UHGV virus genome: UHGV-0039399
DNA from: a virus
Strand: one strand, 5' to 3'
Length of the DNA stretch: 40,347 bases
Numbering within the stretch: the first letter of the stretch is position 1; every line of letters begins with the position of its first letter. The translations under genes and the position numbers were made by a program. Below, in pieces: positions 15,983 through 31,472 of this stretch. The notes beneath the pieces are model-generated. The model was given only the letters and a program-made list of their open reading frames with translations, did not search any database and was not told the DNA's origin.

Positions 15983-16636
15983 ATGGCAAATAAAACACCT
16001 CGCGCAATAGGAACAATGATCCACAGATTCCGCGTTGATACTCCTCCTTTCGAAGTGACAACGTTTTCGAGTTATTACGATTTTGGTACGGAGTATTACG
16101 CAGGATCTAAGGTTGGCGGCGAATCTTATACGTTGATGGCTAATACGTGGCGCTTTGTGCGCTTCCCTGAAAAGGATGATGACGGTATGAACAAAGAAAG
16201 CGAAATTATTGATGAACTGATCGAAGATGAGCGCCATGATTGCGATATTCAACCAGAAAAAACGGAATGGTTGGCGGGAGAAAAACCTCCGGTTGGTGTG
16301 TGGCTTGATTGCGTGGGTCTTACGAGCGGAACGGTTCTCGATGTCGTTAAATTTAAGTATGTTGGTGATAAATGGGCTATATGTGAAAGCAAGGAAGAAC
16401 CATGTAGCGAGAGGCCGCTATCATGGACAACATGCGCATTCAGGATTCATGTTGGTCCGATAGAAAAGGCGCTTGCCGAAATAGCGTTCGCACTTGCCAC
16501 TAAGGTAATGGGTGAAGACGCGGCAAGCGAGATCGACTTTAGCCGTGACAGTGATTTTACGCGTGACTATCGCAATATGGCGCAAGCTATTATTGATGGA
16601 TGTATCGGACACGTTGAATACACGGGGAAAAGATAA
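15983..16636 (+). CDS. hypothetical protein
   Basis: 217-aa acidic ORF. Confidence 0.6.
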   Translation: MANKTPRAIGTMIHRFRVDTPPFEVTTFSSYYDFGTEYYAGSKVGGESYTLMANTWRFVRFPEKDDDGMNKESEIIDELIEDERHDCDIQPEKTEWLAGEKPPVGVWLDCVGLTSGTVLDVVKFKYVGDKWAICESKEEPCSERPLSWTTCAFRIHVGPIEKALAEIAFALATKVMGEDAASEIDFSRDSDFTRDYRNMAQAIIDGCIGHVEYTGKR

Positions 16637-16854
16637 TGGATAAGATCGGCGCAATACTCATTAATCGCGAGCAAGTGCAAAAAATGTTGGGCGGGCTTAG
16701 TAAGTCGGCGTTTTTTAAACTGGTTAAGAAGTGGAAGGATTCAGGTACTCCATTCCCTGAACCCGTTAAGGGGATGCCAGCATTAAAGCGCGGCGGTTAT
16801 CTTTACCGTTATCAGGATGTTATTTCATTTTGTAAATCAATGGGCTTCATGTAG
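16636..16854 (+). CDS. excisionase-like / AlpA-type small DNA-binding protein
   Basis: 72-aa protein with the excisionase-type HTH pattern (INREQVQKMLGGLSKSAFFKLVKK); adjacent to int, 3' ends overlap by 43 bp. Confidence 0.6.
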   Translation: MDKIGAILINREQVQKMLGGLSKSAFFKLVKKWKDSGTPFPEPVKGMPALKRGGYLYRYQDVISFCKSMGFM

Positions 16855-18011
16855 TAATCAGCCAGTTTATTCATCGCCTCGATTTGCTCCCTCACATAGT
16901 CATACTGATCGTATATAGCAAACATCCCCGCCAGCTTATGACCCAAAACCTTTTCCGCGACATGAGGCGCAACGCCAAGCGCTGAAAGGTTTGTCCTCAC
17001 GGTGCGGCGTAGATCGTGACACGACCACGGCTCGCCGCCCATCCTCATCATTAAATCCCTCGCTGCTGTTTTCGGCACGCTTCTGTCCACCGCAACATCC
17101 CTTCCAGAAAGCACAGGAACGAAGACAAAATCAAAGCTATGTAGATCCATAGCCTCACGCAATAAAGCCACGCTAACGTTCGATAAACCGCGTTTAAACT
17201 CATTCCTGTTCTTACTCAATGCACCAGGAACAGTCCACACGCAGCTATCAAGATCGAAATGCTCGCGCCTTGCGTTTGTCAGTTCGCTTGTCCTGCACCC
17301 GGTAAATATAATCAGCTTCATCAATATCTGGTTCAGTCGCGCCATTTTTGAACTATCTACAAGGCCGATTAGACGGTGGATCTCCTGTATTGACAAAACT
17401 CGCTTGCCTTGCGCTGGTTTTTTGCCTACGTCTTTAACGCACAGCAATGATATATCGTCACGATCCACGCGGCGGCGGCGAATGGCGTATTTTATTACGG
17501 CCTTCATTCTGTTGAGAACTATGCCTGCCTGAACTGGTGCGCCACCATTAGCTACCTTCCTAAAAACTCCCTCCCACATCATAGCGTCCATATCATCTAC
17601 AATATAGCTACCGTATGGTTTTATGACGTGCTTACCTAACATGGACTCAACCTGCTTATAGTTGACCATGTTCCTTGCCTGCGGCGATTCCATGTACTCC
17701 CTTACAATATCCTCAACCGTCGCCCGTGTCGTAACTCTGGAAAGGTGCATTCTTTTTGCTACCGATGGATCTCGTCCTGAGTTTAGTAATTCTTTATGCT
17801 CCGCCACCGCCGCCCGCGCTTCTTTGAGCGTTATTTCTCCGTATGTGCCAATCTTCATCCGTCGAGGCTTGCCGTTGAATCGGTAGCGATACTGGAAAGA
17901 TATAACGCCTCGTGGGCTTATCCTGGCAGACAATCCGCCAGCGTCCGGTAATTCCTCCGGGCCGTCGTACGGCTTGCCGTGAATGTTTCGTAATTTGGTA
18001 TCTGTAAGCAT
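16812..18011 (-). CDS. int: tyrosine site-specific integrase
   Basis: 399 aa; N-terminal arm-binding-type domain; C-terminal catalytic region with HDLRRT...LGH and conserved Tyr context. Confidence 0.95.
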   Translation of the reverse strand: MLTDTKLRNIHGKPYDGPEELPDAGGLSARISPRGVISFQYRYRFNGKPRRMKIGTYGEITLKEARAAVAEHKELLNSGRDPSVAKRMHLSRVTTRATVEDIVREYMESPQARNMVNYKQVESMLGKHVIKPYGSYIVDDMDAMMWEGVFRKVANGGAPVQAGIVLNRMKAVIKYAIRRRRVDRDDISLLCVKDVGKKPAQGKRVLSIQEIHRLIGLVDSSKMARLNQILMKLIIFTGCRTSELTNARREHFDLDSCVWTVPGALSKNRNEFKRGLSNVSVALLREAMDLHSFDFVFVPVLSGRDVAVDRSVPKTAARDLMMRMGGEPWSCHDLRRTVRTNLSALGVAPHVAEKVLGHKLAGMFAIYDQYDYVREQIEAMNKLADYYMKPIDLQNEITS

Positions 18012-18270
18012 GATTTTTGGTCACTATTTGGTACACACATTTTACGCATGGATAGTAACACGATGGGGAACGATATGACACGATAGAATAAATATTTCTT
18101 TTGAAATCAACACGAAACAGTGACGATGTGACACGATATGAAATGATAGAAATGGCGCTACCTACTTATCTTTTGAATGGGTAGCATGGAGAAAAACTAA
18201 TTTGTATTCAACATCTTATGCTTTGCTTTTGTTTTTGATTTATCAATTTGGTCACTATTTGGTACACAAA
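18012..18270. other. candidate attP / int regulatory region
   Basis: Immediately upstream of int: 22-bp perfect direct repeat TTTGGTCACTATTTGGTACACA (18016-18037 and 18247-18268) flanking reiterated TGACACGATA motifs (18074, 18128) and shorter ACGAT repeats. Confidence 0.4.
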
Positions 18271-18295
18271 AAGAAACGAGGCGTTAGCCTCGTTT
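18262..18295 (-). terminator. rho-independent terminator downstream of the tail fiber gene
   Basis: 9-bp stem AAACGAGGC-gtta-GCCTCGTTT followed on the minus strand by CUUUUUGUG. Confidence 0.55.
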
Positions 18296-18324
18296 CGCGC
18301 GGCGATGTTCTGCGCACATCACCT

Positions 18325-20883
18325 TTATTCTTCGCTTCCGGTTAACTGCAGGACAAGCTCTTCAAGTTTTGCGATCCGTTCATCCATGACGGCAATGTTG
18401 GCGCGTAGGCTTGCGTTTTCCTCTTCCAGTTCGGTTACGCGGTTATCTGTTTCGCGTGCCACCTGGACAAGTAAACCAGTCACCGCAGCATAGTCAACAT
18501 TGAGATAACGCGTTTCTTCGCGTAGCTCGTTGCCGTCAGTGGTCGGGCCTTGCAATGCTTCACCGTAATGAGTAAACGATCCTACCGCTTCCGGCAGCGC
18601 TTCCATGACTTCCTGAGCGATAACGCCAGCGTAAGGCAGGCCGTTTTCCTTAAGGGTGTATGTGTACCCGTTCATTTTACGGATTGCTTCGGTAGCGTCA
18701 CCTATAACCTGAATGTTGTCTTTCAGGTCGCGATCTGATGATTGATTGAGCGTAGTGCAATTTACTACGCCGTTAACCTGAAATTTAACCGTGTTATCTG
18801 TATTAAGCTGGCAGAAAAAACCGTAACCCAAGTTACTGCCACTATCTGGATCTATATAACTATATTCCAGAACAGATCCTCGAGTATCGCTACCCCAAAA
18901 CAACATTTCTAAGTTTTTTACTGCTGTTTTTTTTGTTTCGATACTAAAGCGTCTGACGAAATCAGAGTCGTAGATGGAAATTTTTTTTAATGTTGAATCC
19001 CCGTTAAGCACCTTAAGTTTAGGCACTTCTATTTCGTTATTGACAAAGTTGTAGCCAATGGCAGTCCCACCAACTGGCGTTTCCCAATGGTTTTTTTCTA
19101 TGCGCCAGTTGCCGCCGTCAAATATGAAAGCGTAGTCCGGCGCACCTTCAGGTCTGTCAGTCTCATCAAATTTAATTGTTGGGTGTGCGCTCGTCAAAGT
19201 TAATGGATTGCTTACGTTTGACATTAATTTTGCAGTTTTGCCTATAAAAGACCCTTGATTTAAAGCAAAGTCGCCGTCTTCGTTCAATCCTGCATATATG
19301 TTTATATCATTACGCTGTAGGTGAGTTGTTGCCCACGCCTTACCATCACCCCTAAACTCGGTGTAAATGCGCGTTCTTGCTCTTTGCGCTCCTGATGTAT
19401 TGCTGAGTATGCTTTGTAATATGCCTCCGTTAGTGGTTTCATTATCCGAAGAAATTACAAGATTGAGATTTTTAAATTGTGGGCTATCAGCAAAGTCTAG
19501 GGACTGAAATTTCTTCCACGCGCTCCACTCCCAGCCATTTGAAGACTGAATAATGTATTGGCGCATATAAAAAACGCCATTTATAGCATTGTAAGGGAAA
19601 TAAAGCTGAGTGCATCCTGATGCGGTATTCGCGCCGTTTTTTATAACAAGCAATGCACCAGCAGCTGCCAACGGATAGCCACGATCAGTCGTTGCAGCCG
19701 AATTCGTTGTCTGATAATAAAAACCAGAATACTCGCCGGTAAGTGTATTAATGTTGGTTTCACTTAAGGCTGATCTTTTCTCGTGCATAACTTCAAGGTT
19801 TGTGCGCGCTTGCCCTGCATTGCGTCCTGCTGTGCCGCCTTGTGCAATATCTAACGGTTTCCATTGACCGATCTCGCTATCATAAACACCCCATGCACAA
19901 TTATTGCCGATTTCAAAATAAATTTTTCCGTTGCCAGAGTAAAGGCGAGTCTGGCTATCTGCAATTTGCATTAGGCGACTAACCTCATCTTTTCTTGCGT
20001 GCCTTGTCCATTGCGGGCCTGTTGATTCGCTCCACTTATAAGTGTAAGCACTGCCGGTAATATGCCCTATAAAAAGACCAGAAAACGCCGGGACACTACC
20101 TAAAGTCGGGCAAATAAAGCCAGACAAATAGCGCTCACCTGAAGCAATAGAAGGCCACCCGGCAGCCCCTTCCATGATGCGCAGAAAGCCAAGATAGCCT
20201 GATGGGTTTCCTGAAATATCCGGGCAATCTCTTGGGTTTGAGGAAAGACCAATGCTACTCCCTACAATACCTTGCGCCTGGTTACGATAATTTAGCGCAT
20301 CGGCTGCTGATTTTGCTGCATTGGTTTCGCTGGTTGCTGCCGCTGTTTTGCTGTTGCTGGCTGCTGTTTCACTGGCTTTTGCTGCATCCTGTGACGCTTT
20401 TGCTGCGGTTGCTGAGTTCGCTGCTGCTGTTTTTGATGCCGCCGCCGCGTTTTTGTCTGATTCTGTTTTTTGGGCGTTGGCTGTTGATTTCGCTGTTTCT
20501 GCGCGAATGTCGGCAAGAAGTTGTTCCATCTGACCATCACCGCCGAACTCGTTCCACCATTCAACGGCTGTTGCAATCTCTGATTCCTTGCCCTGGTAGT
20601 AACGCAGAGTTTCGGCTACATCCTGGGCAAGCCCATCAACTGAGATCGAGTCAGAAAGCAGAATGCTAAATTTTGTCCCGGCAGCGATTGCAGGGTTAGC
20701 CGCTGGCGTTACTGACAGTTCTGTACCGCTCTTGATTTCGGTGACGGTAAAGATCTGGATAGGGTTGCTGATGGCAATAAGCGTGCAACCAACACGAATG
20801 AGAGAAAGCGGCTCGGAGAAGTTTGTCCCCGTGCCTTTAACAGTGTTGCCATTAACGGCAATTGTTCCAGTTGTGTAAATCAT
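18325..20883 (-). CDS. side tail fiber with C-terminal intramolecular chaperone (S74-type) domain
   Basis: 852 aa; Ala/Ser/Thr-rich fibrous repeats; C-terminus carries the SSDRDLKDNI motif and coiled coil typical of self-cleaving chaperone domains; GGAG RBS. Confidence 0.8.
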   Translation of the reverse strand: MIYTTGTIAVNGNTVKGTGTNFSEPLSLIRVGCTLIAISNPIQIFTVTEIKSGTELSVTPAANPAIAAGTKFSILLSDSISVDGLAQDVAETLRYYQGKESEIATAVEWWNEFGGDGQMEQLLADIRAETAKSTANAQKTESDKNAAAASKTAAANSATAAKASQDAAKASETAASNSKTAAATSETNAAKSAADALNYRNQAQGIVGSSIGLSSNPRDCPDISGNPSGYLGFLRIMEGAAGWPSIASGERYLSGFICPTLGSVPAFSGLFIGHITGSAYTYKWSESTGPQWTRHARKDEVSRLMQIADSQTRLYSGNGKIYFEIGNNCAWGVYDSEIGQWKPLDIAQGGTAGRNAGQARTNLEVMHEKRSALSETNINTLTGEYSGFYYQTTNSAATTDRGYPLAAAGALLVIKNGANTASGCTQLYFPYNAINGVFYMRQYIIQSSNGWEWSAWKKFQSLDFADSPQFKNLNLVISSDNETTNGGILQSILSNTSGAQRARTRIYTEFRGDGKAWATTHLQRNDINIYAGLNEDGDFALNQGSFIGKTAKLMSNVSNPLTLTSAHPTIKFDETDRPEGAPDYAFIFDGGNWRIEKNHWETPVGGTAIGYNFVNNEIEVPKLKVLNGDSTLKKISIYDSDFVRRFSIETKKTAVKNLEMLFWGSDTRGSVLEYSYIDPDSGSNLGYGFFCQLNTDNTVKFQVNGVVNCTTLNQSSDRDLKDNIQVIGDATEAIRKMNGYTYTLKENGLPYAGVIAQEVMEALPEAVGSFTHYGEALQGPTTDGNELREETRYLNVDYAAVTGLLVQVARETDNRVTELEEENASLRANIAVMDERIAKLEELVLQLTGSEE

Positions 20884-20916
20884 CGCAATGACTCCATTAT
20901 GTTAATTAACGGAATA

Positions 20917-20925
20917 ATTCTACCA
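20917..20925 (-). promoter_or_regulatory. candidate extended -10 (TGgTAGAAT) for the tail fiber gene
   Basis: Minus-strand TGGTAGAAT about 30 nt upstream of the start codon, in the divergent intergenic region. Confidence 0.3.
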
Positions 20926-21051
20926 TTTTGTGATCTATGTTGCATTTTCTGTTCACACAAAACGTATTTGTTGATTTATATCAATATACGAAATGTGGTT
21001 TTGTCGGATATTTAAGCCACCGGATGAGCAAGCAAGAATGAGGATTCAAAA

Positions 21052-21300
21052 ATGAAAAACGTGTTCAAAGTGGTTTTGTTCGCTGCGGCTGTAGCTCTTA
21101 CTGGCTGTGCTGTTGACAAAGAGGCTGCATTGCATAACCTGCCGAATAGCGGAGTGATTCCACAAGATGTTGTATATGATGGAAGCGGTCATCTTGTCTA
21201 TGACACTGAAAAACTGCCGTATACTGGGCAATGGTGTCATGAACTCGATCACAACATGCGCCGCATCGGTAGCCCTTCGAACTGTGTAGCTAACTACTAA
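21052..21300 (+). CDS. small lipoprotein, candidate Cor/Llp-like superinfection exclusion protein
   Basis: 82 aa; signal peptide with lipobox LTGC; GAGGA RBS; opposite strand between J and the tail fiber gene, ending in a strong terminator. Confidence 0.6.
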   Translation: MKNVFKVVLFAAAVALTGCAVDKEAALHNLPNSGVIPQDVVYDGSGHLVYDTEKLPYTGQWCHELDHNMRRIGSPSNCVANY

Positions 21301-21304
21301 AAGA

Positions 21305-21335
21305 AAACCCCGCGCGAAGCGGGGTTGTTTTTTTA
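21305..21335. terminator. bidirectional rho-independent terminator (lipoprotein gene / J)
   Basis: CCCCGC-gcgaa-GCGGGG hairpin followed by a T-run on the plus strand and an A-run/U-tract on the minus strand. Confidence 0.7.
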
Positions 21336-24300
21336 TCCTGAGAATGAACCGGAACCGCGCGACACAATGACTGTCGGCGATTGTATATAAGCCCCCTTGC
21401 TATTTTGAGCGGATACCTTAATGGTAACTGTAACGCTCTTGCTAGTTACTGCTGATGAATGCATAACAAGGCGCTCAGTGCCATCTACCATCGAGGCTTT
21501 TGATGAACCGCCGATCGTTATTGTGCAACCACCATAACCTTTAACGTTAGCCATAACACAAACATGTCTGCTATGTGCAGCGTCTGACGTGTCGGTGTAT
21601 GTGATTGTTTTTACTAGCTCACCATCCCTTGTTCTGCTAACGTCAGATCCCGTATACATGTTCGCAACGTCACCGATAAAGGTCTTCGCCTCAAGTGACC
21701 CTGAGAACTTACCGCTGCTGGCATACACGGCCCCCCTTACCGTTACGTTGTTAAGTTCCGCGCTACCGTTTTTGTTGATCATCCAGCCGGAAGACCCTGC
21801 TGCGTAGTTGGTTGACTGTATCTGCTGTGCAATTTTAGCAGTAGTAATGGCTGCATCTGCAATCTTAGCCGTTCCTATTGATGCGTTTTTAATAAACGCT
21901 TCTTTTACATACATTGCGCCGTTAGACACATAGAAAGGCGCTGTATATGTGCCGTTTGCTGCGGTCATTAACACGAAGCGGTCAACGAGGAAAATACACT
22001 GCGATTGAACGTTAGTACCGTTGCCAGTTAAACCAAGTGACATACCTGTTGCGTATTTCATGCCGTTGTTGTCGGTTGCCAGTTTGATGGAGTACGTCGC
22101 ATCGACATTACCCTTGAAGTCGGTTAACGCTTTCGACGTCGTTTGTATCGCTGTTGTGTTCCCGTTAACGGTCACTGTTAGCTGATCGATTTTGTTTGAT
22201 AATGCCTCGTCAGCCGTTGCCATAGCCTGTGACCATTCTGTAATGCTTGAGTTTACAGATTCGAAAGACGCTGAGATCTGGCCGAATTTTTCCGCGCTTG
22301 ATGCCTCATGCGTAGAAAGCGCCGTTGATACCTCAGACACTTTCGAGTTAATCGTACTGGTAAGCGATGAGTTAAGACTATTTATCGCGTCAGTGCGTGC
22401 CTTCGTTTCGTCTGCAATGGCCTTGTCAATACGAGTCACGTTGCTTGTAACCTTGCCATCAAGTGTTGAAATTGACGCATTCACGCCACTGATGGCTTGT
22501 GCTCTGGCACTGGCCTCGTCAGCAATTGCCTGGTCCAGTCTGCTAACTTCGGATTCAGTGTTGCTTTCAAGCGTGTTAATGCTTGCGTTCACGCCACTGA
22601 TTGCCTCGCTGCGTGCGTTTGTCTCGTCAGCGATAGCCTTGTCGAGACGGGAAACGCTGGCGTCGGTTTTCTTGTCTAGATCCGTGATCGATGCTTTTAC
22701 CACGCCAATTGCTTCGGCTGTAGCCTTTTTCTCTTCAGCGATAACACTGTCAATACGATCAATCTGCGCGTTTGTTTCCTTGCGACCTTTCTTGTACTGG
22801 GCCGTAAGGGTAACGCGCGTGTTGGTCTGAGCGATTGAGTTATTAATCAGCGCAATCGAAGCGTTTTGCAGGCTTGCTTTTGTCTGATTTATATCATCGC
22901 TGTTTTTGTCAACGCTATTTTCAATGCTGCCGATCTCCGCGTTAATGCCTGAGATTGCTTCAGCTCTGGCGCTTGATTCGTCTGCAATAGCCTGATCCAA
23001 ACGTTTAACGCTGGCGTTTGTGCTGTTTTCAAGCGTTGTCAAATCAGCATTAACGTCTGTTATTGCTGCGCTTCTTGCCTGCGTCTCGTCAGCGATAGCC
23101 TTGTCGAGACGGGAAACGCTGGCGTCAGTTTTGCTTTCAAGGTTGCTTATTGATGCTTTAACATCGCTCACAGCCTGGGCGCGGGCGCTGGCCTCGTCGG
23201 CAATCGACTGATCAAGGCGTTTAACTTCTGAATTGGTGTTACCTTCAAGTGTGTCAATACTTGCTTTGACTCCGCTGATTGCGTCAGTGCGTGCCTTCGT
23301 TTCGTCGGCGATAGCTTTATCTATGCGCGTTACATTGCTTGTTACCTTGCTATCAAGCGTTGAAATTGACGCATTCACGCCACTGATGGCTTCAGTTCTT
23401 GCGCTGGTTTCGTCTGCTATTGCTTGATCCAGGCGTTTCACGCTGGCGTCAGTTTTCTTGTCTAGCGATGAGACACTCGCGTTAACGTCACTAACTGCCT
23501 GTGTGCGGGCGTTCGTTTCGTCTGCGATGGCCTGATCAAGTCTGTTGACGCTGGCATCGGTTTTCTTGTCTAGATTGCTTATTGATGCGTTAACGCCGTT
23601 GATTGCTTCAGCGCGGGCGCTTGCCTCGTCAGCCACTGCGCGTTCCACGCTGGAAATCTGACCCTTAAGGTTAGAATCCATCGTGTTCATTTCTGCAGTG
23701 ATGGTTTCCAGTGATTCCGCTGTAGCCTTTTTCTCTTCAGCAATAACGTTGTCAATGCGGTCAATTTCAGCCTTCGTCTCTGTCCTGCCTTTCTTGTACT
23801 GAGCAGTGAGAGTAACCCGCGTGTTGGTCTGAGCAAGGGAGTTGTTGATAAGTGCCAACGACGCGTTTTGCAGGCTTGCTTTTGCTTGCGCCAGTTCACT
23901 GCCAACTTTTTCGCTAGATACCTCCAGAGAATCTATTCTTGCCTCATGATGTCCAATATCGTCGGCGTTTTCTCCAACCTTTTTGTAAAGATCTTCCGTC
24001 TCTTTTTTCAGTGTGTCCGTGTCAGCTTTTATGGCCCCTGTTTCTGTGATTAGGCCGTCCGTATCAGTCCTCAATTCGTCAGTGATGTTTATCAGGTTGT
24101 CAGTTTCAACCCTCAAATCGTCAGTGATGTTTGTCAGGTTGTCAGTTGCAGTTTTGAGGTTGTCAGTAGCGTTTTTAAGGTCATTTGTAGCGCTTTCGAT
24201 AAGGTCGGCACGGTCGCCAAGATCTTTAATGTCGCCGATCATGCCCTTGAACTGTTCTGACTCCATGACGTCCTTCATCACGTAGTCGCTGATTTCGTCG

Positions 24301-26711
24301 AAGTTTTCAGTCGGTTTTCCTGATGCCTCAACAAAGTCTGACACACCAAAGGCATTACGCGTGCGCACATAAACGTAATATTTATGGCCCGTGTTCATGC
24401 CGCCAAAAGTCCATTGGTAGCCGCGCCCGGTGAATTGCGCCAGCATGGTTACTTTTGATGGGTCTGTGATCTGGTTTTCACCTGAGTAATAAAACTCGTA
24501 TGCTGTATCAGTGGTCAGGGTTGTTTTGCTGATCGGATATACCGTTGCCTGGAAGACACCGGGAACCCAATTGACTCCAATCGGGGCTGCTGGCGCACCA
24601 ATAACCAGGTCAACAATACTTTCAGCACCCTTCATGCCAGTGTCATTACGCCCGCGAATACCAAGCGTGTAGCTGCCAGCATCCAGGCCATAAAAATCAT
24701 AGCGGTAATTCGTGGTTTCATAAGTTGCCACAATGCGGCCTTCGGTGTTATATACGCGTATTTCAAAGGTCAGGCGATGCGTTGTCGTCTGTGTTTCCCA
24801 TGTTGCGCGGCACTGGACTGTCTCAGAACCAACGTTTAACACCTTCAGATTTTCAATGTTCGGCACGCGGAAGTGATTAAGCGTGTCGTTGTTTACCTCG
24901 AAGATTGCGCCTTCATCAACTACAGCCTGTTTGTGCGGATCGTGCTGTGCAGCCTCAATGGTGTACACGCTGTTATTTTCGGTTTCCGCTACGCTGGTAA
25001 TTCGGCACAGAACAGGTTTTGCTGATTCAGTCGATACAGCAAACACGGTTCCGTTACGAATCCATGCTGGCGCTGACGCAAGGGTAATATTGTTTCCGTT
25101 AACCCCAGTGATCTGATGTTTTTTAAACTTGCCGTCGCTATCCAGTAAGCTGATAGTGTCGCCAGCCGCCACCAGATCAGAATCAACCTTGTCTACAGTT
25201 ATCACTTTCCCGTTATTCGCTACGATGCGACCGCCTAAACGAGCGGCTGCGCGGTTATTGTCGAGTATCTCGATAATATCCCCTGGGGTGAAGTGAATTG
25301 CGTCACGGGCCATTTTAAACGTGAATTTTGAGGGTTCGCGTTTTGCTGTTTCTATCAGCCATTTGCCAGCGCGGTACGCCTGCCCGCGTGACGTGCAACC
25401 GAAAGCCTCCAACGTGGTTTCGTTGTAACCATCGCGGGCGATCAGTTCGTCATCTGCCACGTATTCTTTTGATTGTTCCCAACCGTTTTCAGGGTCAGTC
25501 CATGACACGATAACGGCGTTGTAAGATTCTGCGCGAGCGATACTTGAACGAGTGAACGCGCCATCAACGACGTTTGCATTTGTGATAGTGGCAATTGGAT
25601 CTTGCGGTGCATCAATCATCACCGTAAGGCGCTGCCCGTCCCATAACGCGATACCACGGAACATGCCTGCAATGTTATCCAGCAAGTCGCGGGCGCTCAT
25701 TTGCTCCGTGATGTAAGCGTTAAGCGTCATGCGTGGTTCAAGGCCGCCGTAACCGTCGTTTACCAACTGGTCGCAGTATTGAGAAAGCGTATACAGTGCG
25801 CCGTCATCAACGTCGATGTAACCAGCGTGGCGGGCAAGCCCGAAGCGTTCATTTTTAACCAGATACCGGAAAAGCCACGCAGGGTTGTTGGTGTATGCCT
25901 TTTTGAAGCCACCAAGCCATAAGCCTGAATACGTGCGCGTTTCAGGGTCGTAGTTATCAGGCACATCAACAATCAGACCGCGCATGTGATAGGTGCGTGT
26001 CGGGGTATCAGTATACTGATCGTGGTCAATTACCGCGCCTGCTACAGCGGTGTGAGGATAAGATAAATTATCGTCGATTATCTCGCTGTAACTGCCCCAT
26101 CTGGTGTCATTGCGAAGTAGATCGCTTTTGCTGTCTGGCGTTACGCGACGAACGCGAATATCAAACGGTTTTTCATCCGGCGCCTGGATGATATGCGCTT
26201 CCATGTACTCGCCGCTTTGTTTACCAGGGCCAATTGTAATGCCTTTAACCAGTGACCACGATGTTGAGGATGAAGGCTTAACGTCAACCGCCAGCGTAAC
26301 CGATGTGTTGTATTGATTGCCCTTATCATCTGACTGAACCAAAGCATCAACGCCGAGATTCAGCCTTACGCGGTTAACGTTTGGATCTGAAACGGTTCGG
26401 ATTATTGGCGTATCGTGAGTTACTTTTGCGTTAACAATAACGGTTGATTCAATGGCGTTGAATCCGTTGATTGGTGACTGGTCAGCCGTACCATTACGCC
26501 ACGCCACGCTAACGCCAGGGACTGATGTACCTCCGTTGGCGTCAGTGATTGGGCTGTCATTAAGCATAACGCTGTTTAATGGCGCTTTCTGGTTTACAGG
26601 TCCGTAGATTGGGCCTTCGCTGAGAATGTCCAAAACGCGATAAAACTGTTTATGAAACAGGTTATCGTTTAATAATGTTGGTGTTTTGGCTTTGCCGCCG
26701 CCGCTACTCAT
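21333..26711 (-). CDS. J: central tail fiber / host specificity protein J with expanded coiled-coil stalk
   Basis: 1792 aa; N-terminal region and C-terminal domain align with my recollection of lambda gpJ; a roughly 660-aa repetitive coiled-coil insertion lies between them. Confidence 0.9.
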   Translation of the reverse strand: MSSGGGKAKTPTLLNDNLFHKQFYRVLDILSEGPIYGPVNQKAPLNSVMLNDSPITDANGGTSVPGVSVAWRNGTADQSPINGFNAIESTVIVNAKVTHDTPIIRTVSDPNVNRVRLNLGVDALVQSDDKGNQYNTSVTLAVDVKPSSSTSWSLVKGITIGPGKQSGEYMEAHIIQAPDEKPFDIRVRRVTPDSKSDLLRNDTRWGSYSEIIDDNLSYPHTAVAGAVIDHDQYTDTPTRTYHMRGLIVDVPDNYDPETRTYSGLWLGGFKKAYTNNPAWLFRYLVKNERFGLARHAGYIDVDDGALYTLSQYCDQLVNDGYGGLEPRMTLNAYITEQMSARDLLDNIAGMFRGIALWDGQRLTVMIDAPQDPIATITNANVVDGAFTRSSIARAESYNAVIVSWTDPENGWEQSKEYVADDELIARDGYNETTLEAFGCTSRGQAYRAGKWLIETAKREPSKFTFKMARDAIHFTPGDIIEILDNNRAAARLGGRIVANNGKVITVDKVDSDLVAAGDTISLLDSDGKFKKHQITGVNGNNITLASAPAWIRNGTVFAVSTESAKPVLCRITSVAETENNSVYTIEAAQHDPHKQAVVDEGAIFEVNNDTLNHFRVPNIENLKVLNVGSETVQCRATWETQTTTHRLTFEIRVYNTEGRIVATYETTNYRYDFYGLDAGSYTLGIRGRNDTGMKGAESIVDLVIGAPAAPIGVNWVPGVFQATVYPISKTTLTTDTAYEFYYSGENQITDPSKVTMLAQFTGRGYQWTFGGMNTGHKYYVYVRTRNAFGVSDFVEASGKPTENFDEISDYVMKDVMESEQFKGMIGDIKDLGDRADLIESATNDLKNATDNLKTATDNLTNITDDLRVETDNLINITDELRTDTDGLITETGAIKADTDTLKKETEDLYKKVGENADDIGHHEARIDSLEVSSEKVGSELAQAKASLQNASLALINNSLAQTNTRVTLTAQYKKGRTETKAEIDRIDNVIAEEKKATAESLETITAEMNTMDSNLKGQISSVERAVADEASARAEAINGVNASISNLDKKTDASVNRLDQAIADETNARTQAVSDVNASVSSLDKKTDASVKRLDQAIADETSARTEAISGVNASISTLDSKVTSNVTRIDKAIADETKARTDAISGVKASIDTLEGNTNSEVKRLDQSIADEASARAQAVSDVKASISNLESKTDASVSRLDKAIADETQARSAAITDVNADLTTLENSTNASVKRLDQAIADESSARAEAISGINAEIGSIENSVDKNSDDINQTKASLQNASIALINNSIAQTNTRVTLTAQYKKGRKETNAQIDRIDSVIAEEKKATAEAIGVVKASITDLDKKTDASVSRLDKAIADETNARSEAISGVNASINTLESNTESEVSRLDQAIADEASARAQAISGVNASISTLDGKVTSNVTRIDKAIADETKARTDAINSLNSSLTSTINSKVSEVSTALSTHEASSAEKFGQISASFESVNSSITEWSQAMATADEALSNKIDQLTVTVNGNTTAIQTTSKALTDFKGNVDATYSIKLATDNNGMKYATGMSLGLTGNGTNVQSQCIFLVDRFVLMTAANGTYTAPFYVSNGAMYVKEAFIKNASIGTAKIADAAITTAKIAQQIQSTNYAAGSSGWMINKNGSAELNNVTVRGAVYASSGKFSGSLEAKTFIGDVANMYTGSDVSRTRDGELVKTITYTDTSDAAHSRHVCVMANVKGYGGCTITIGGSSKASMVDGTERLVMHSSAVTSKSVTVTIKVSAQNSKGAYIQSPTVIVSRGSGSFSG
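22190..24200. repeat. in-frame tandem repeats within J (84-bp/28-aa units, acidic heptads, and a duplicated block about 1 kb apart)
   Basis: Repeated protein unit RLDQAIADETxARxEAISGVNASISxLDxKTDASV about 12 times; the anchor KASLQNAS(L/I)ALINNS(L/I)AQTNTRVTLTAQYKKGR occurs twice (DNA near 22880 and 23880). Confidence 0.8.
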
Positions 26712-28734: not shown

Positions 28735-28920
28735 ATGGTTAACAAAATGGCGCGGAGGTGTGAGGTGGATGATAAGGTGTGGAGGTTGACGGTATTCCTT
28801 AGTGATGGCAGGGAAATGACTGTGGCCCTGTATAAAGATGAAGGCGAGGCACTTACTGACGCGCTCTTACTCGCTGAAGATGAACGAGTTTTTGGATACA
28901 GGATCGAACCTGTCAAATGA
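28735..28920 (+). CDS. small acidic protein (61 aa), L-M cassette gene 1
   Basis: ORF with AAAGGAAG RBS on the strand opposite the tail operon. Confidence 0.5.
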   Translation: MVNKMARRCEVDDKVWRLTVFLSDGREMTVALYKDEGEALTDALLLAEDERVFGYRIEPVK

Positions 28921-28933
28921 GAGGTTAACAAAA

Positions 28934-29284
28934 ATGCAAAAATACAGTTTAGAGGTCTGGACTGATAAATGTGAATGGGAGCGCATGGGCCTGTTTGATA
29001 CATACGCCGCAGCGCGTGATGAAGGTCGTGAGTTACTTCGCTGTTGGTCTGGCGCTCGTGATTTTGATATTACTCCGGTCCAGGTGCCGGATATGGTGGA
29101 AGAGATGAACCCGAAAGATATTAACTTCAACGTCAATGTTGAATTTTCAGACTCTATGGATCAGGCTTGCCCTGGTGAAATTCACGCAAAAGGTTTTCCG
29201 GCAGACGATCCAGAAGCAAAACGCGAATACGAAAAAGCTGCGAAAGACTTCTGCATTGATAACCTGGGCGCATTCGATAAATAA
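28934..29284 (+). CDS. acidic protein (116 aa), L-M cassette gene 2
   Basis: GAGAGG RBS; start refined from the track ORF 28838-29284; strongly acidic C-terminal half. Confidence 0.55.
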   Translation: MQKYSLEVWTDKCEWERMGLFDTYAAARDEGRELLRCWSGARDFDITPVQVPDMVEEMNPKDINFNVNVEFSDSMDQACPGEIHAKGFPADDPEAKREYEKAAKDFCIDNLGAFDK

Positions 29285-29293
29285 GGGGGACAC

Positions 29294-29542
29294 ATGGGTC
29301 GGCGCAACCACGGCGATTATGTGTACACGCTGAAACAGGCCGCCCGCCTCGTCGGGTATCATGAGCACGAATTTATTGATTTGCTGATTGAGCGCGGGAT
29401 ACTTTACCAGGTCTGTCTGACGCTGTACCCAAAAGCGAAATACCTACAGGAAAAGTTATTTATCATCATGACGGACGAAAACCAGGTAAATCACTCATTC
29501 GTCACTGATAAAGGTGTCAACTATCTGCGTGATAACTTATAG
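29294..29542 (+). CDS. small HTH DNA-binding protein (82 aa), L-M cassette gene 3
   Basis: GGGGG RBS; N-terminal excisionase/MerR-like HTH (YTLKQAARLVGYHEHEFIDLLIERGIL). Confidence 0.55.
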   Translation: MGRRNHGDYVYTLKQAARLVGYHEHEFIDLLIERGILYQVCLTLYPKAKYLQEKLFIIMTDENQVNHSFVTDKGVNYLRDNL

Positions 29543-30005: not shown

Positions 30006-30359
30006 TTAGCCAACAACTTGTTCAAACGTTGCGTTTAGCGTGCAAACAGGCCCGTCTTTGGTCATATTCCAGCTACGACAAACGAAAAGCCTTTGCACCC
30101 CGTCGGTCGATGGAGTCCAGTAAAACGCCTCGACCGCGCCGCGCGCCCTTAAAAATGCGTCAACCTGTAGCGCGACATTTCCTGCTGCACCGCATCCTGC
30201 ACTACTTCCTTTGAAAACCAGGGTATAAGTATCAAGTAACGTGTTGATCCCTTTCGCCTGGCGCTGCTCATAACCGTCACCAAGTTTAACGACGGACACG
30301 TTTGGTTCAGTGTTTACGCTGTAGCTTCTTTGCGGCGTCCATTTGAAAACTTCAGGCAT
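30006..30359 (-). CDS. M: minor tail protein M
   Basis: Similar to lambda gpM as I recall it (GDGYEQR vs GDGYSQR; C-terminal FEQVVG vs FEQVVN); start refined to the ATG preceded by a G8 tract. Confidence 0.85.
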   Translation of the reverse strand: MPEVFKWTPQRSYSVNTEPNVSVVKLGDGYEQRQAKGINTLLDTYTLVFKGSSAGCGAAGNVALQVDAFLRARGAVEAFYWTPSTDGVQRLFVCRSWNMTKDGPVCTLNATFEQVVG

Positions 30360-30533
30360 GATCCCCCCCCTCTCATAAGTTACATATTGCATACATCTTT
30401 ACGCGCTTCTACGCGAAAAATGATAACTTCGTCACAAGAATTATACCAAGTTTACGAAATGGCTTCACACAGGACGCAACAAGATGTATACAGAAAGCAA
30501 GAAGAGAAAGCAGTACCAACAAAGGGGGCCAAT

Positions 30534-30689
30534 ATGGAACGCTATGTAGTGGTAATGCTAAACAAAGCATTCGAACAGGTGGAAGTTGCGATTGTGAAGG
30601 GTTTTGATGATGCATTCAAATACGGTCAATTCATGATGAATGCAAAAGAAGATGAATACCGTGATTTCTTCCTGAAAGTGGTCAACTGA
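30534..30689 (+). CDS. small protein (51 aa), M-tape-measure cassette gene 1
   Basis: AAGGGGG RBS; opposite strand to the tail operon; the track's longer ORF 30330-30689 has weaker start context. Confidence 0.45.
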   Translation: MERYVVVMLNKAFEQVEVAIVKGFDDAFKYGQFMMNAKEDEYRDFFLKVVN

Positions 30690-30709
30690 TTGATTGCGCG
30701 GGGTGAGTT

Positions 30710-30964
30710 ATGAAATTGGTGGCGATTGGCAAAAACCTGAAAGCACAGAAAAACGCACAGGAACGGATCATCAAAAAAGGCAAGGCTTTATTAAATTCTT
30801 TCCTGAAAAAAGAGGCCAACCCCAAAAAATTACGCGATGGCTACGGCTATAAATTTGACATCAACCCCGATTGGCGGTTATTCAGCGAAGATTTAAAGAT
30901 GTGGTTAATTATTGACCATCTGGAATACAACCGCCACTGTGGCGTAAAAGGGGCGCATAAATGA
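30710..30964 (+). CDS. basic Lys-rich protein (84 aa), cassette gene 2
   Basis: ORF with GGGGTGAG RBS-like context. Confidence 0.5.
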   Translation: MKLVAIGKNLKAQKNAQERIIKKGKALLNSFLKKEANPKKLRDGYGYKFDINPDWRLFSEDLKMWLIIDHLEYNRHCGVKGAHK

Positions 30965-31289: not shown

Positions 31290-31472
31290 ATGATGATTAT
31301 TCACGAGACTGAAGAATGCAGAAGGATTGATCTTAGTGTTGAAGATGATGGAAGATTATGGATCGTTAGCGACTGCGAGATGATTGTAATAAACAAAAAG
31401 CAAGCTGACGAACTGATAAGAGCATTACAGCTTTATGCAAGCGGCGAATTTAAGAATGATGAAATTGAATAA
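31290..31472 (+). CDS. small acidic protein (60 aa), cassette gene 5
   Basis: ORF with GAAGG RBS, followed by a terminator. Confidence 0.5.
   Translation: MMIIHETEECRRIDLSVEDDGRLWIVSDCEMIVINKKQADELIRALQLYASGEFKNDEIE

Follow-up and report, generated by a model that had tools for sequence, protein, structure and literature searches.

A four-part side tail fibre with a built-in, probably self-cleaving S74 chaperone in a temperate coliphage of the mEpimmI group

The DNA considered here (the window) is a stretch of 40,347 nucleotides of the UHGV virus genome UHGV-0039399. It belongs to a temperate Escherichia coli (E. coli) siphophage of the mEpimmI (mEp021-like) group, whose members are temperate, Nus-dependent coliphages of a non-lambdoid kind (PMC11893012), and it carries the gene for the side (lateral) tail fibre of this phage. 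The elements of this locus are found in the order J (the tail tip protein), exclusion lipoprotein, fibre, terminator, attP, and int (the integrase gene). A first reading of the window made from its letters only (the sequence-only reading) had described the gene as that of a side tail fibre with a self-cleaving C-terminal chaperone domain and no separate tail fibre assembly gene (tfa). In the analysis reported here, the fibre very likely consists of four parts, namely a conserved anchor and stalk, a shaft resembling that of T5 and BF23, a hypervariable tip, and an S74 chaperone, with self-contained folding, trimerisation, and self-cleavage and no need for a separate Tfa-type protein. The gene and its parts are distributed as follows:

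20892..20895, minus strand: ribosome-binding site GGAG, 8 nt 5' of the ATG, read directly from the sequence
18325..20883, minus strand: side tail fibre gene, a single open reading frame (ORF) of 852 codons encoding an 852-aa precursor of 92.2 kDa
20284..20883, minus strand: conserved N-terminal part (residues 1-200), made of a virion-attachment domain (~1-110) and an Ala-rich helical stalk (~111-200)
19012..20673, minus strand: shaft region (residues 71-624), whose counterpart by homology is the N-terminal half of the L-shaped tail fibre of BF23 (T5-like)
18739..19083, minus strand: distal tip (residues 601-715), hypervariable and presumed to bind the receptor
18328..18738, minus strand: C-terminal intramolecular chaperone / Peptidase_S74 domain (residues 716-852; 137 aa, 15.1 kDa), ending at the stop codon
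18736..18738, minus strand: codon of Ser716, the predicted nucleophile, at position 1 of the Pfam profile and invariant among homologues
18721..18723, minus strand: codon of Lys721 (Ser+5), invariant among homologues and predicted to act as the general base
18340..18492, minus strand: C-terminal heptad-patterned helix (residues 798-848), a predicted trimeric coiled coil

The protein is recognised as a tail fibre because of its PHROG families, its homology to the BF23 L-shaped fibre, and its position after J, and on this point the sequence-only reading had been right. Two tail-fibre families of PHROG match it (phrog_6578, E = 5.6e-165; phrog_4563, E = 3e-66 over residues 640-834). The Pfam scan returns one match only, to PF13884 (Peptidase_S74), and the NCBIfam scan none. 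In blastp, residues 71-624 align with residues 26-587 of the BF23 fibre Ltf at 49.5% identity (E = 3e-167; E = 6e-149 by tblastn). Within its own group, the window is 88-95% identical at the nucleotide level, in pieces over positions 16500-21400, to MagusPhagus, mEp013, mEp554, mEp010, and mEp044, and the fibre itself shares 80% identity with mEp013_106 and 75% with the fibre of the UMNK88 prophage.

The C-terminal module had been read as a chaperone of 150 residues carrying the serine motif SSDRDLKDNI. The chaperone and the motif are both there, the latter at residues 715-724, and the size had to be corrected, to the 137 aa of residues 716-852. The profile search proposed at the time as a check gives a match to PF13884 ('Chaperone of endosialidase') over residues 716-767, with an E-value of 2.5e-14 and a score of 53.7 bits (gathering cutoff, 22 bits), and covers positions 1-57 of the 58 in the profile. 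A search with the C-terminal 241 aa retrieved 115 homologues, 107 of which contain the motif; in every one of these 107, the Ser-Asp pair is present together with a Lys at Ser+5. The residue preceding the catalytic Ser can instead be S, L, T, I, H, G, N, V, or A. Since S715 varies so freely, the conserved catalytic serine is S716, the second Ser of the 'SS' pair, and this is the other minor correction to the sequence-only reading. When the alignment is widened by six distant chaperone domains (two T5-like, and one each from Drexlerviridae, T-even gp37, a baseplate protein of a cyanophage, and an unclassified coliphage), the invariant columns are reduced to eight, namely G705, S716, D717, K721, G739, G753, A756, and Q757.

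Ser/Lys+5 dyads have been proven experimentally in endoNF (S911/K916) and MyRF (S587/K592) (PMC8326128) and in T5 pb1 (S1264/K1269) (PMC4690869); S716 and K721 are spaced exactly as in these three. The profile built from the wider alignment also reaches four solved structures of the S74 type in the PDB, namely S16 gp37 (6F45, E = 4.5e-26), the MyRF ICA (7DC3, 6.4e-13), a tail fibre (8JOV, 3.5e-7), and the GA-1 gp12 chaperone (3GUD, 2.8e-4). In these alignments, the S716 motif falls on SDRRIK in 6F45, on ADLRAK in 7DC3 (where the A is the S587A substitution), and on SDERHK in 3GUD. The structures 3GW6 and 4UW8 were reached neither by the single-sequence and first-profile searches of the PDB nor by the broader profile. 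The first residue of 3GUD, which is the released chaperone chain of GA-1, is the Ser aligned to S716, and the scissile bond of this fibre is therefore expected between S715 and S716.

The coiled coil that the sequence-only reading had placed at the C terminus also reappears. In the AlphaFold model, residues 798-848 form a single helix, with a pLDDT of ~90 over most of its length and ~70 in its first 18 residues. In its best heptad register, 10 of the 15 a/d positions are occupied by L, I, V, or M, a pattern that was reached by 100 of 10,000 shuffles (1%). Residues 798-848 are thus predicted to form a trimeric coiled coil.

The rest of the protein is a mosaic. Over residues 5-186, it has a match to the particle-binding part at the N terminus of the Klebsiella siphophage depolymerases 7VYV/7LZJ (E = 6e-32), and 30 of the 96 residues at positions 110-205 are Ala. 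A sliding comparison with three collinear relatives (mEp013, UMNK88, and mEp554) gives identities of 90-100% over residues 1-200, 42-100% in a patchwork over 201-600, 22-52% over 601-720, and ~92-100% over 721-840. This allele departs from its relatives chiefly at residues 201-360 and in the tip (601-720), which is variable although the relatives are otherwise 75-80% identical. The low identity at 601-715 makes this segment the likely specificity-determining tip. At the S74 boundary, identity rises from ~45% to ~100%, and this jump marks an independent domain boundary at the predicted cleavage site. The segment just N-terminal of S716 has a weak likeness to the shaft domains of T4 gp34 in profile searches, and no sequence match to the receptor-binding 'bullet' domain of T5 pb1 (4UW7) or to 4UW8 was obtained with either the full protein or the alignment profiles. 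No database protein exceeded 87% in a full-length match to the C-terminal 241 aa.

The chaperone end of the gene has counterparts in other kinds of phages. The DNA encoding it (18404-18783) is 82-86% identical to that of the lambdoid phages mEp460, Ayreon, and PhiR70_1, and the S74 domain protein is 64-66% identical to fibres of rV5-like and T5-like phages. This distribution suggests that the chaperone module may have been exchanged across phage lineages.

Downstream of the fibre gene are found the following features:

18263..18296, minus strand: intrinsic terminator 3' of the fibre gene, with a perfect 10-bp stem at 18273-18296 (6 GC pairs) and a T-run, starting 29 nt past the stop codon
18164..18180, strand-neutral: attP core region (target abgT), with the core at ~18164-18174, between the terminator and int
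16812..18011, minus strand: tyrosine integrase, with the Pfam domains Arm-DNA-bind_3, Phage_int_M, and Phage_integrase, and 95% nucleotide identity to the int region of mEp010/mEp044

The terminator and the att-like region directly 3' of the gene are therefore where the sequence-only reading had put them. The 70-nt terminator region folds at -30.4 kcal/mol (z = -5.1), its hairpin is invariant in the four relatives compared (mEp013, mEp010, mEp554, and the UMNK88 prophage), and it is carried as an ARNold annotation in the records of the relatives.

The absence of a tfa-like gene, which had also been claimed, holds in an ORF survey, in profile scans, and in a direct search. Between the fibre stop codon and int, no minus-strand ORF of at least 50 aa lies wholly inside the gap; those confined to it are scraps of 20-30 aa and the others run into int or into the fibre gene, the listed minus-strand ORF at 17794..18081 being one that overlaps the start of int. 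A hidden small ORF was sought both between the fibre and int and 5' of the fibre, and the search yielded only scraps of 20-47 aa, none of them credible. PHROG scans of 20 ORFs (19 from the tail and head module and one by int) returned J-associated tail assembly proteins and minor tail proteins, and no tail-fibre-assembly or chaperone family. Lambda Tfa, searched by tblastn against all six frames of the window, gave a best E-value of 1.3. No tfa is annotated beside the fibre in mEp013, mEp010, mEp554, MagusPhagus, the UMNK88 prophage, or the lambdoid phage mEp460, and in the PHROG-annotated genome of MagusPhagus there is no fibre-assembly protein among the 107 of 122 features examined. In the relatives, the fibre is directly followed by the terminator and then by the end of the record or of the prophage. 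The paper on the BASEL phage collection describes this as a dichotomy, in which coliphage fibres have either an intramolecular chaperone (IMC) at the C terminus or a separate Tfa (PMC11990801).

Self-contained trimerisation and C-terminal processing are well established for this family, in T5 pb1, the K1F endosialidase, GA-1 gp12, and MyRF. By homology with these proteins, trimerisation, cleavage, and receptor binding would proceed in sequence. The C-terminal coiled coil (798-848) would bring three nascent chains into register, and the intertwined, beta-structured tip would fold on the chaperone body as a template. Correct folding of the trimer would set S716 beside K721, so that Ser716, activated by Lys721, could attack the S715-S716 bond. 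In this way, the C-terminal chaperone very probably cuts itself off, and its release as a fragment of 15.1 kDa is predicted to leave a mature fibre of 77.0 kDa that ends at residue 715 and has its receptor-binding tip unmasked. This tip presumably binds a surface receptor. In T5, only processed pb1 competes for the receptor, and the uncleaved chaperone masks the site and blocks binding (PMC4690869). With a chaperone built into the chain, no separate Tfa-type assembly protein would be needed.

Several observations weigh against this sequence of events. A basic 'folding sensor' residue lies 14 residues N-terminal of the Ser, in the preceding beta-helix, in endoNF (R897) and in T5 (R1250) (PMC8326128, PMC4690869), whereas position -14 is Q702 in this fibre and the nearest basic residue, K700, is unconserved in the homologue alignment. 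The AlphaFold2 monomer model of residues 686-852, built on a 20-sequence alignment, is poor (pLDDT 64), and Foldseek found no match to it in the PDB at E <= 0.001, with 3GW6 appearing only at E ~3-4; as the domain is an obligate intertwined trimer, the monomer model and its Foldseek result were set aside as evidence either way. In the accessible portions of the mEpimmI paper and its supplements, neither a band size nor peptide coverage is given for the fibre (PMC11893012). Host chaperones may still contribute, and ~13 kb of the ~53-kb genome lies outside the window, where a distant chaperone gene is formally possible. The missing Arg sensor and the poor model would suit an S74 domain that aids folding and trimerisation but stays uncleaved, being then a degenerate protease or a permanent cap. 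Such a domain is nevertheless highly unlikely here: MyRF cleaves without any basic sensor residue (PMC8326128), and this residue is therefore regarded as a non-universal feature; Ser716, Asp717, and Lys721 are all preserved without variation; strong purifying selection acts on the chaperone, which is ~100% identical among relatives; and, by the precedent of T5, a retained chaperone would probably disable the fibre (PMC4690869).

That the fibre depends on a separate, phage-encoded assembly chaperone is very improbable as well. Such a gene might lie in the part of the genome beyond the window or among the many small ORFs of unknown function, including those of the plus-strand block in the tail operon, and there is the example of S16 gp37 (6F45), which has an IMC and yet partners with gp38. 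Against this stand the lack of a Tfa-like match in the window, in the 20 scanned ORFs, and in the MagusPhagus features, the terminator and prophage end directly 3' of the fibre in every relative examined, and the finding that T5 pb1 fragments produced in E. coli on their own both fold and undergo cleavage (PMC4690869). Finally, the position of the gene at the extreme end of the prophage, adjoining attP, and the many database homologues that are short fragments (140-420 aa) could recall a decaying or non-functional prophage-end remnant (a 'grounded' fibre) that is not part of the virion. The chance of this is close to nil, given that the 852-codon ORF is intact, with a ribosome-binding site and a terminator, that it is collinear and full-length in the isolated infectious phages mEp013, mEp554, and MagusPhagus, that its mEp021 orthologue carries the annotation of a virion structural protein, and that attP is intact in a phage-form genome. 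A self-contained fibre with a self-cleaving chaperone thus remains the preferred interpretation.

Among the closest known systems is the L-shaped tail fibre of T5 and BF23 (pb1 and Ltf; PDB 4UW7/4UW8; PMC4690869), which, like the fibre of the window, is a siphophage side fibre with a homologous shaft, a chaperone of the same family, and a Ser/Lys+5 dyad. The chaperones are of comparable length, 137 aa in the window and 133 aa in T5 pb1 (PMC4690869), and in both cases the gene is followed by a terminator, with no separate chaperone gene. The differences are also considerable. The fibre of the window has 852 aa, whereas those of T5 and BF23 have 1265-1396 aa; its first 70 residues do not align with BF23; its IMC is only 23-25% identical to the C-terminal region of BF23, including the BF23 IMC, with BF23 residues 978-1252 aligning at 23%; and its tip lacks a sequence match to the pb1 'bullet'. 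Moreover, the phage of the window is a temperate one, with a J tail tip of the lambda kind. No T5-type collar protein was found in the window, where the best tblastn match to the BF23 collar has an E-value of 9.1 and the upstream neighbours of the fibre are the lipoprotein and J. The idea of a collar-dependent L-shaped fibre of the T5 type was rejected on account of the collar protein.

Also close are the fibres of the mEpimmI group itself (mEp013_106, mEp554_113, MagusPhagus CDS0019, and WP_000640713.1 of UMNK88), which occupy the same locus and are 75-80% identical, collinear, and endowed with the same S74 end. Outside the group, the side fibre of the lambdoid phage mEp460 (AFM76057.1, 1202 aa) shares its C-terminal 195 aa, including the IMC, at 67% identity (~82% for the DNA of the IMC), and its gene lies near int without a tfa, as in the window. 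Contrary to the fibre of the window, that of mEp460 has an N terminus of the lambda Stf type (pfam08400 in the note of its record). The K1F endosialidase CIMCD (3GW6), GA-1 gp12 (3GUD), S16 gp37 (6F45), and the MyRF ICA (7DC3) belong to the same Pfam family and have the Ser-Lys dyad and a C-terminal triple coiled coil, which in the fibre of the window is predicted. Their passengers differ, and are a sialidase beta-propeller in K1F, a neck appendage in GA-1, the tip of a T-even long fibre in S16, and a eukaryotic transcription factor in MyRF.

As in the lambda Stf/Tfa system, the phage of the window, a temperate siphophage whose tail tip is lambda-like, encodes a side fibre 3' of J. Its fibre differs in having neither N- nor C-terminal homology to Stf and no Tfa, the folding help being built in rather than supplied in trans. 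A system of the Stf/Tfa type was accordingly rejected: Pfam did not find Phage_tail_N (PF08400), lambda orf401 and orf314 gave tblastn E-values of 0.47 or worse, limited to an Ala-rich stretch, and there was no match to Tfa.

In the mEpimmI group, the S74 end is found in all four fibre alleles scanned with Pfam, which have 449 (mEp021), 849, 852, and 1160 aa; a 655-aa allele from mEp010, outside that scan, is 93.5% identical over the C-terminal module. The mEp021 orthologue was annotated as 'tail structural protein' in a study that also mapped virion proteins by mass spectrometry, and the paper makes no mention of S74, a chaperone, or a side fibre (PMC11893012). Phage records label the fibres of the group as 'hypothetical' or 'tail fiber protein', leaving the chaperone unnoted. 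In the prophages KKa019, PAR, and Ecol_244, the allele is annotated as 'phage head spike fiber domain-containing protein'. The UMNK88 orthologue (WP_000640713.1), the closest one from a prophage, has been given the name 'pyocin knob domain-containing S74 family peptidase' by PGAP. A pyocin-knob domain, suggested by this name, was not confirmed, as the profile of residues 196-720 gave only weak matches to fibre shafts in the PDB, including the fibre-repeat structure 8JOV. Within the group, the locus of the fibre shows high plasticity; in mEp021 (1980-2915), it has the 449-aa fibre and, between J and the lipoprotein, an additional DUF6453 virion protein that the window lacks.

The attachment site was mapped by searching complete E. 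coli genomes with positions 17000-20900 as a query. The matches split, with those on the fibre side starting at query positions 1165-1176 and those on the int side ending at 1175, which corresponds to window positions 18164-18175. At either end of the prophage, the host side carries an annotated abgT, and the alignment of the prophages also diverges at the attP core. In UMNK88, the order is abgA, abgB, and a truncated abgT', then the fibre, a cor-type lipoprotein, two hypothetical genes, and J. This mapping agrees with the assignment of the type II integrases of the group to abgT (PMC11893012). As attP is intact, the window represents an unintegrated, phage-form genome. A perfect 22-bp direct repeat (TTTGGTCACTATTTGGTACACA) at 18016-18037 and 18247-18268 flanks the attP core, with its copies 231 bp apart, and three copies of an ACGATrTGACACGATA-like motif are found between int and the core (18060-18151). 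Both probably represent arm-type or accessory-factor binding sites of the integrase. Scans of the window for Rfam families and tRNAs found nothing.

Just 5' of the fibre start lies a plus-strand ORF of 38 aa (20899-21015), with small 'hypothetical' coding sequences at the matching position in mEp013, mEp010, mEp554, and MagusPhagus. Though consistently annotated, it is probably a gene-caller artefact within the upstream region of the fibre. It is followed by the gene for an 82-aa lipoprotein (21052-21300, plus strand; lipobox LTGC), which is 100% identical to Lpp010 of mEp010, a protein shown experimentally to exclude mEp010, mEp044, mEp554, and lambda (PMC11893012). Its UMNK88 equivalent is named 'phage exclusion lipoprotein Cor' by PGAP. 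This gene is convergent with J, and a bidirectional terminator at 21306-21326 is common to both. The J tip protein (21333-26711, minus strand) is unusually long, at 1792 aa, and several hundred residues of repeated, coiled-coil-like units (RLDQAIADExxAR...VNASIS.LD.KTDASV) part its lambda-J-like N-terminal domains from the C-terminal Phage_Tail_Tip; repeats of variable length have been noted at this position of J in mEpimmI phages (PMC11893012). The minus-strand tail operon contains blocks of small plus-strand ORFs (28838-29542, 30330-30964, and 31290-31472), which separate its tape-measure, M-like, and L-like genes. Four of these ORFs were scanned and all match PHROGs of unknown function; the layout looks moron-like and is kept in mEp013 and MagusPhagus.

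The fibre of the window is a new allele in a well-known family, and its built-in chaperone is ordinary, catalogued phage biology, so that the current understanding of fibre assembly is unchanged by the finding. Its importance is mainly for annotation, as the mEpimmI literature has not noted the chaperone of the side fibre. This chaperone nevertheless predicts where the mature fibre would end (residue 715, 77 kDa) and explains the missing tfa gene. A more tentative proposal, and one that is rather less probable than not, is that the near-invariant chaperone segment, together with the terminator and attP, acts as a portable 3' homology arm which, combined with the conserved 5' anchor, allows tips to be swapped across mEpimmI, lambdoid, T5-like, and rV5-like phages, and that the tip may then set the specificity for O-antigen or surface glycans in gut E. 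coli. If this were true, the rough K-12 hosts on which the group was characterised would not reveal the role of the tip; on them, J and its LamB or OmpA receptors are all that has been seen to matter. For work on this family, residues 601-715 are marked as the likely host-range determinant, and engineered swaps of the tip should retain its cognate chaperone.

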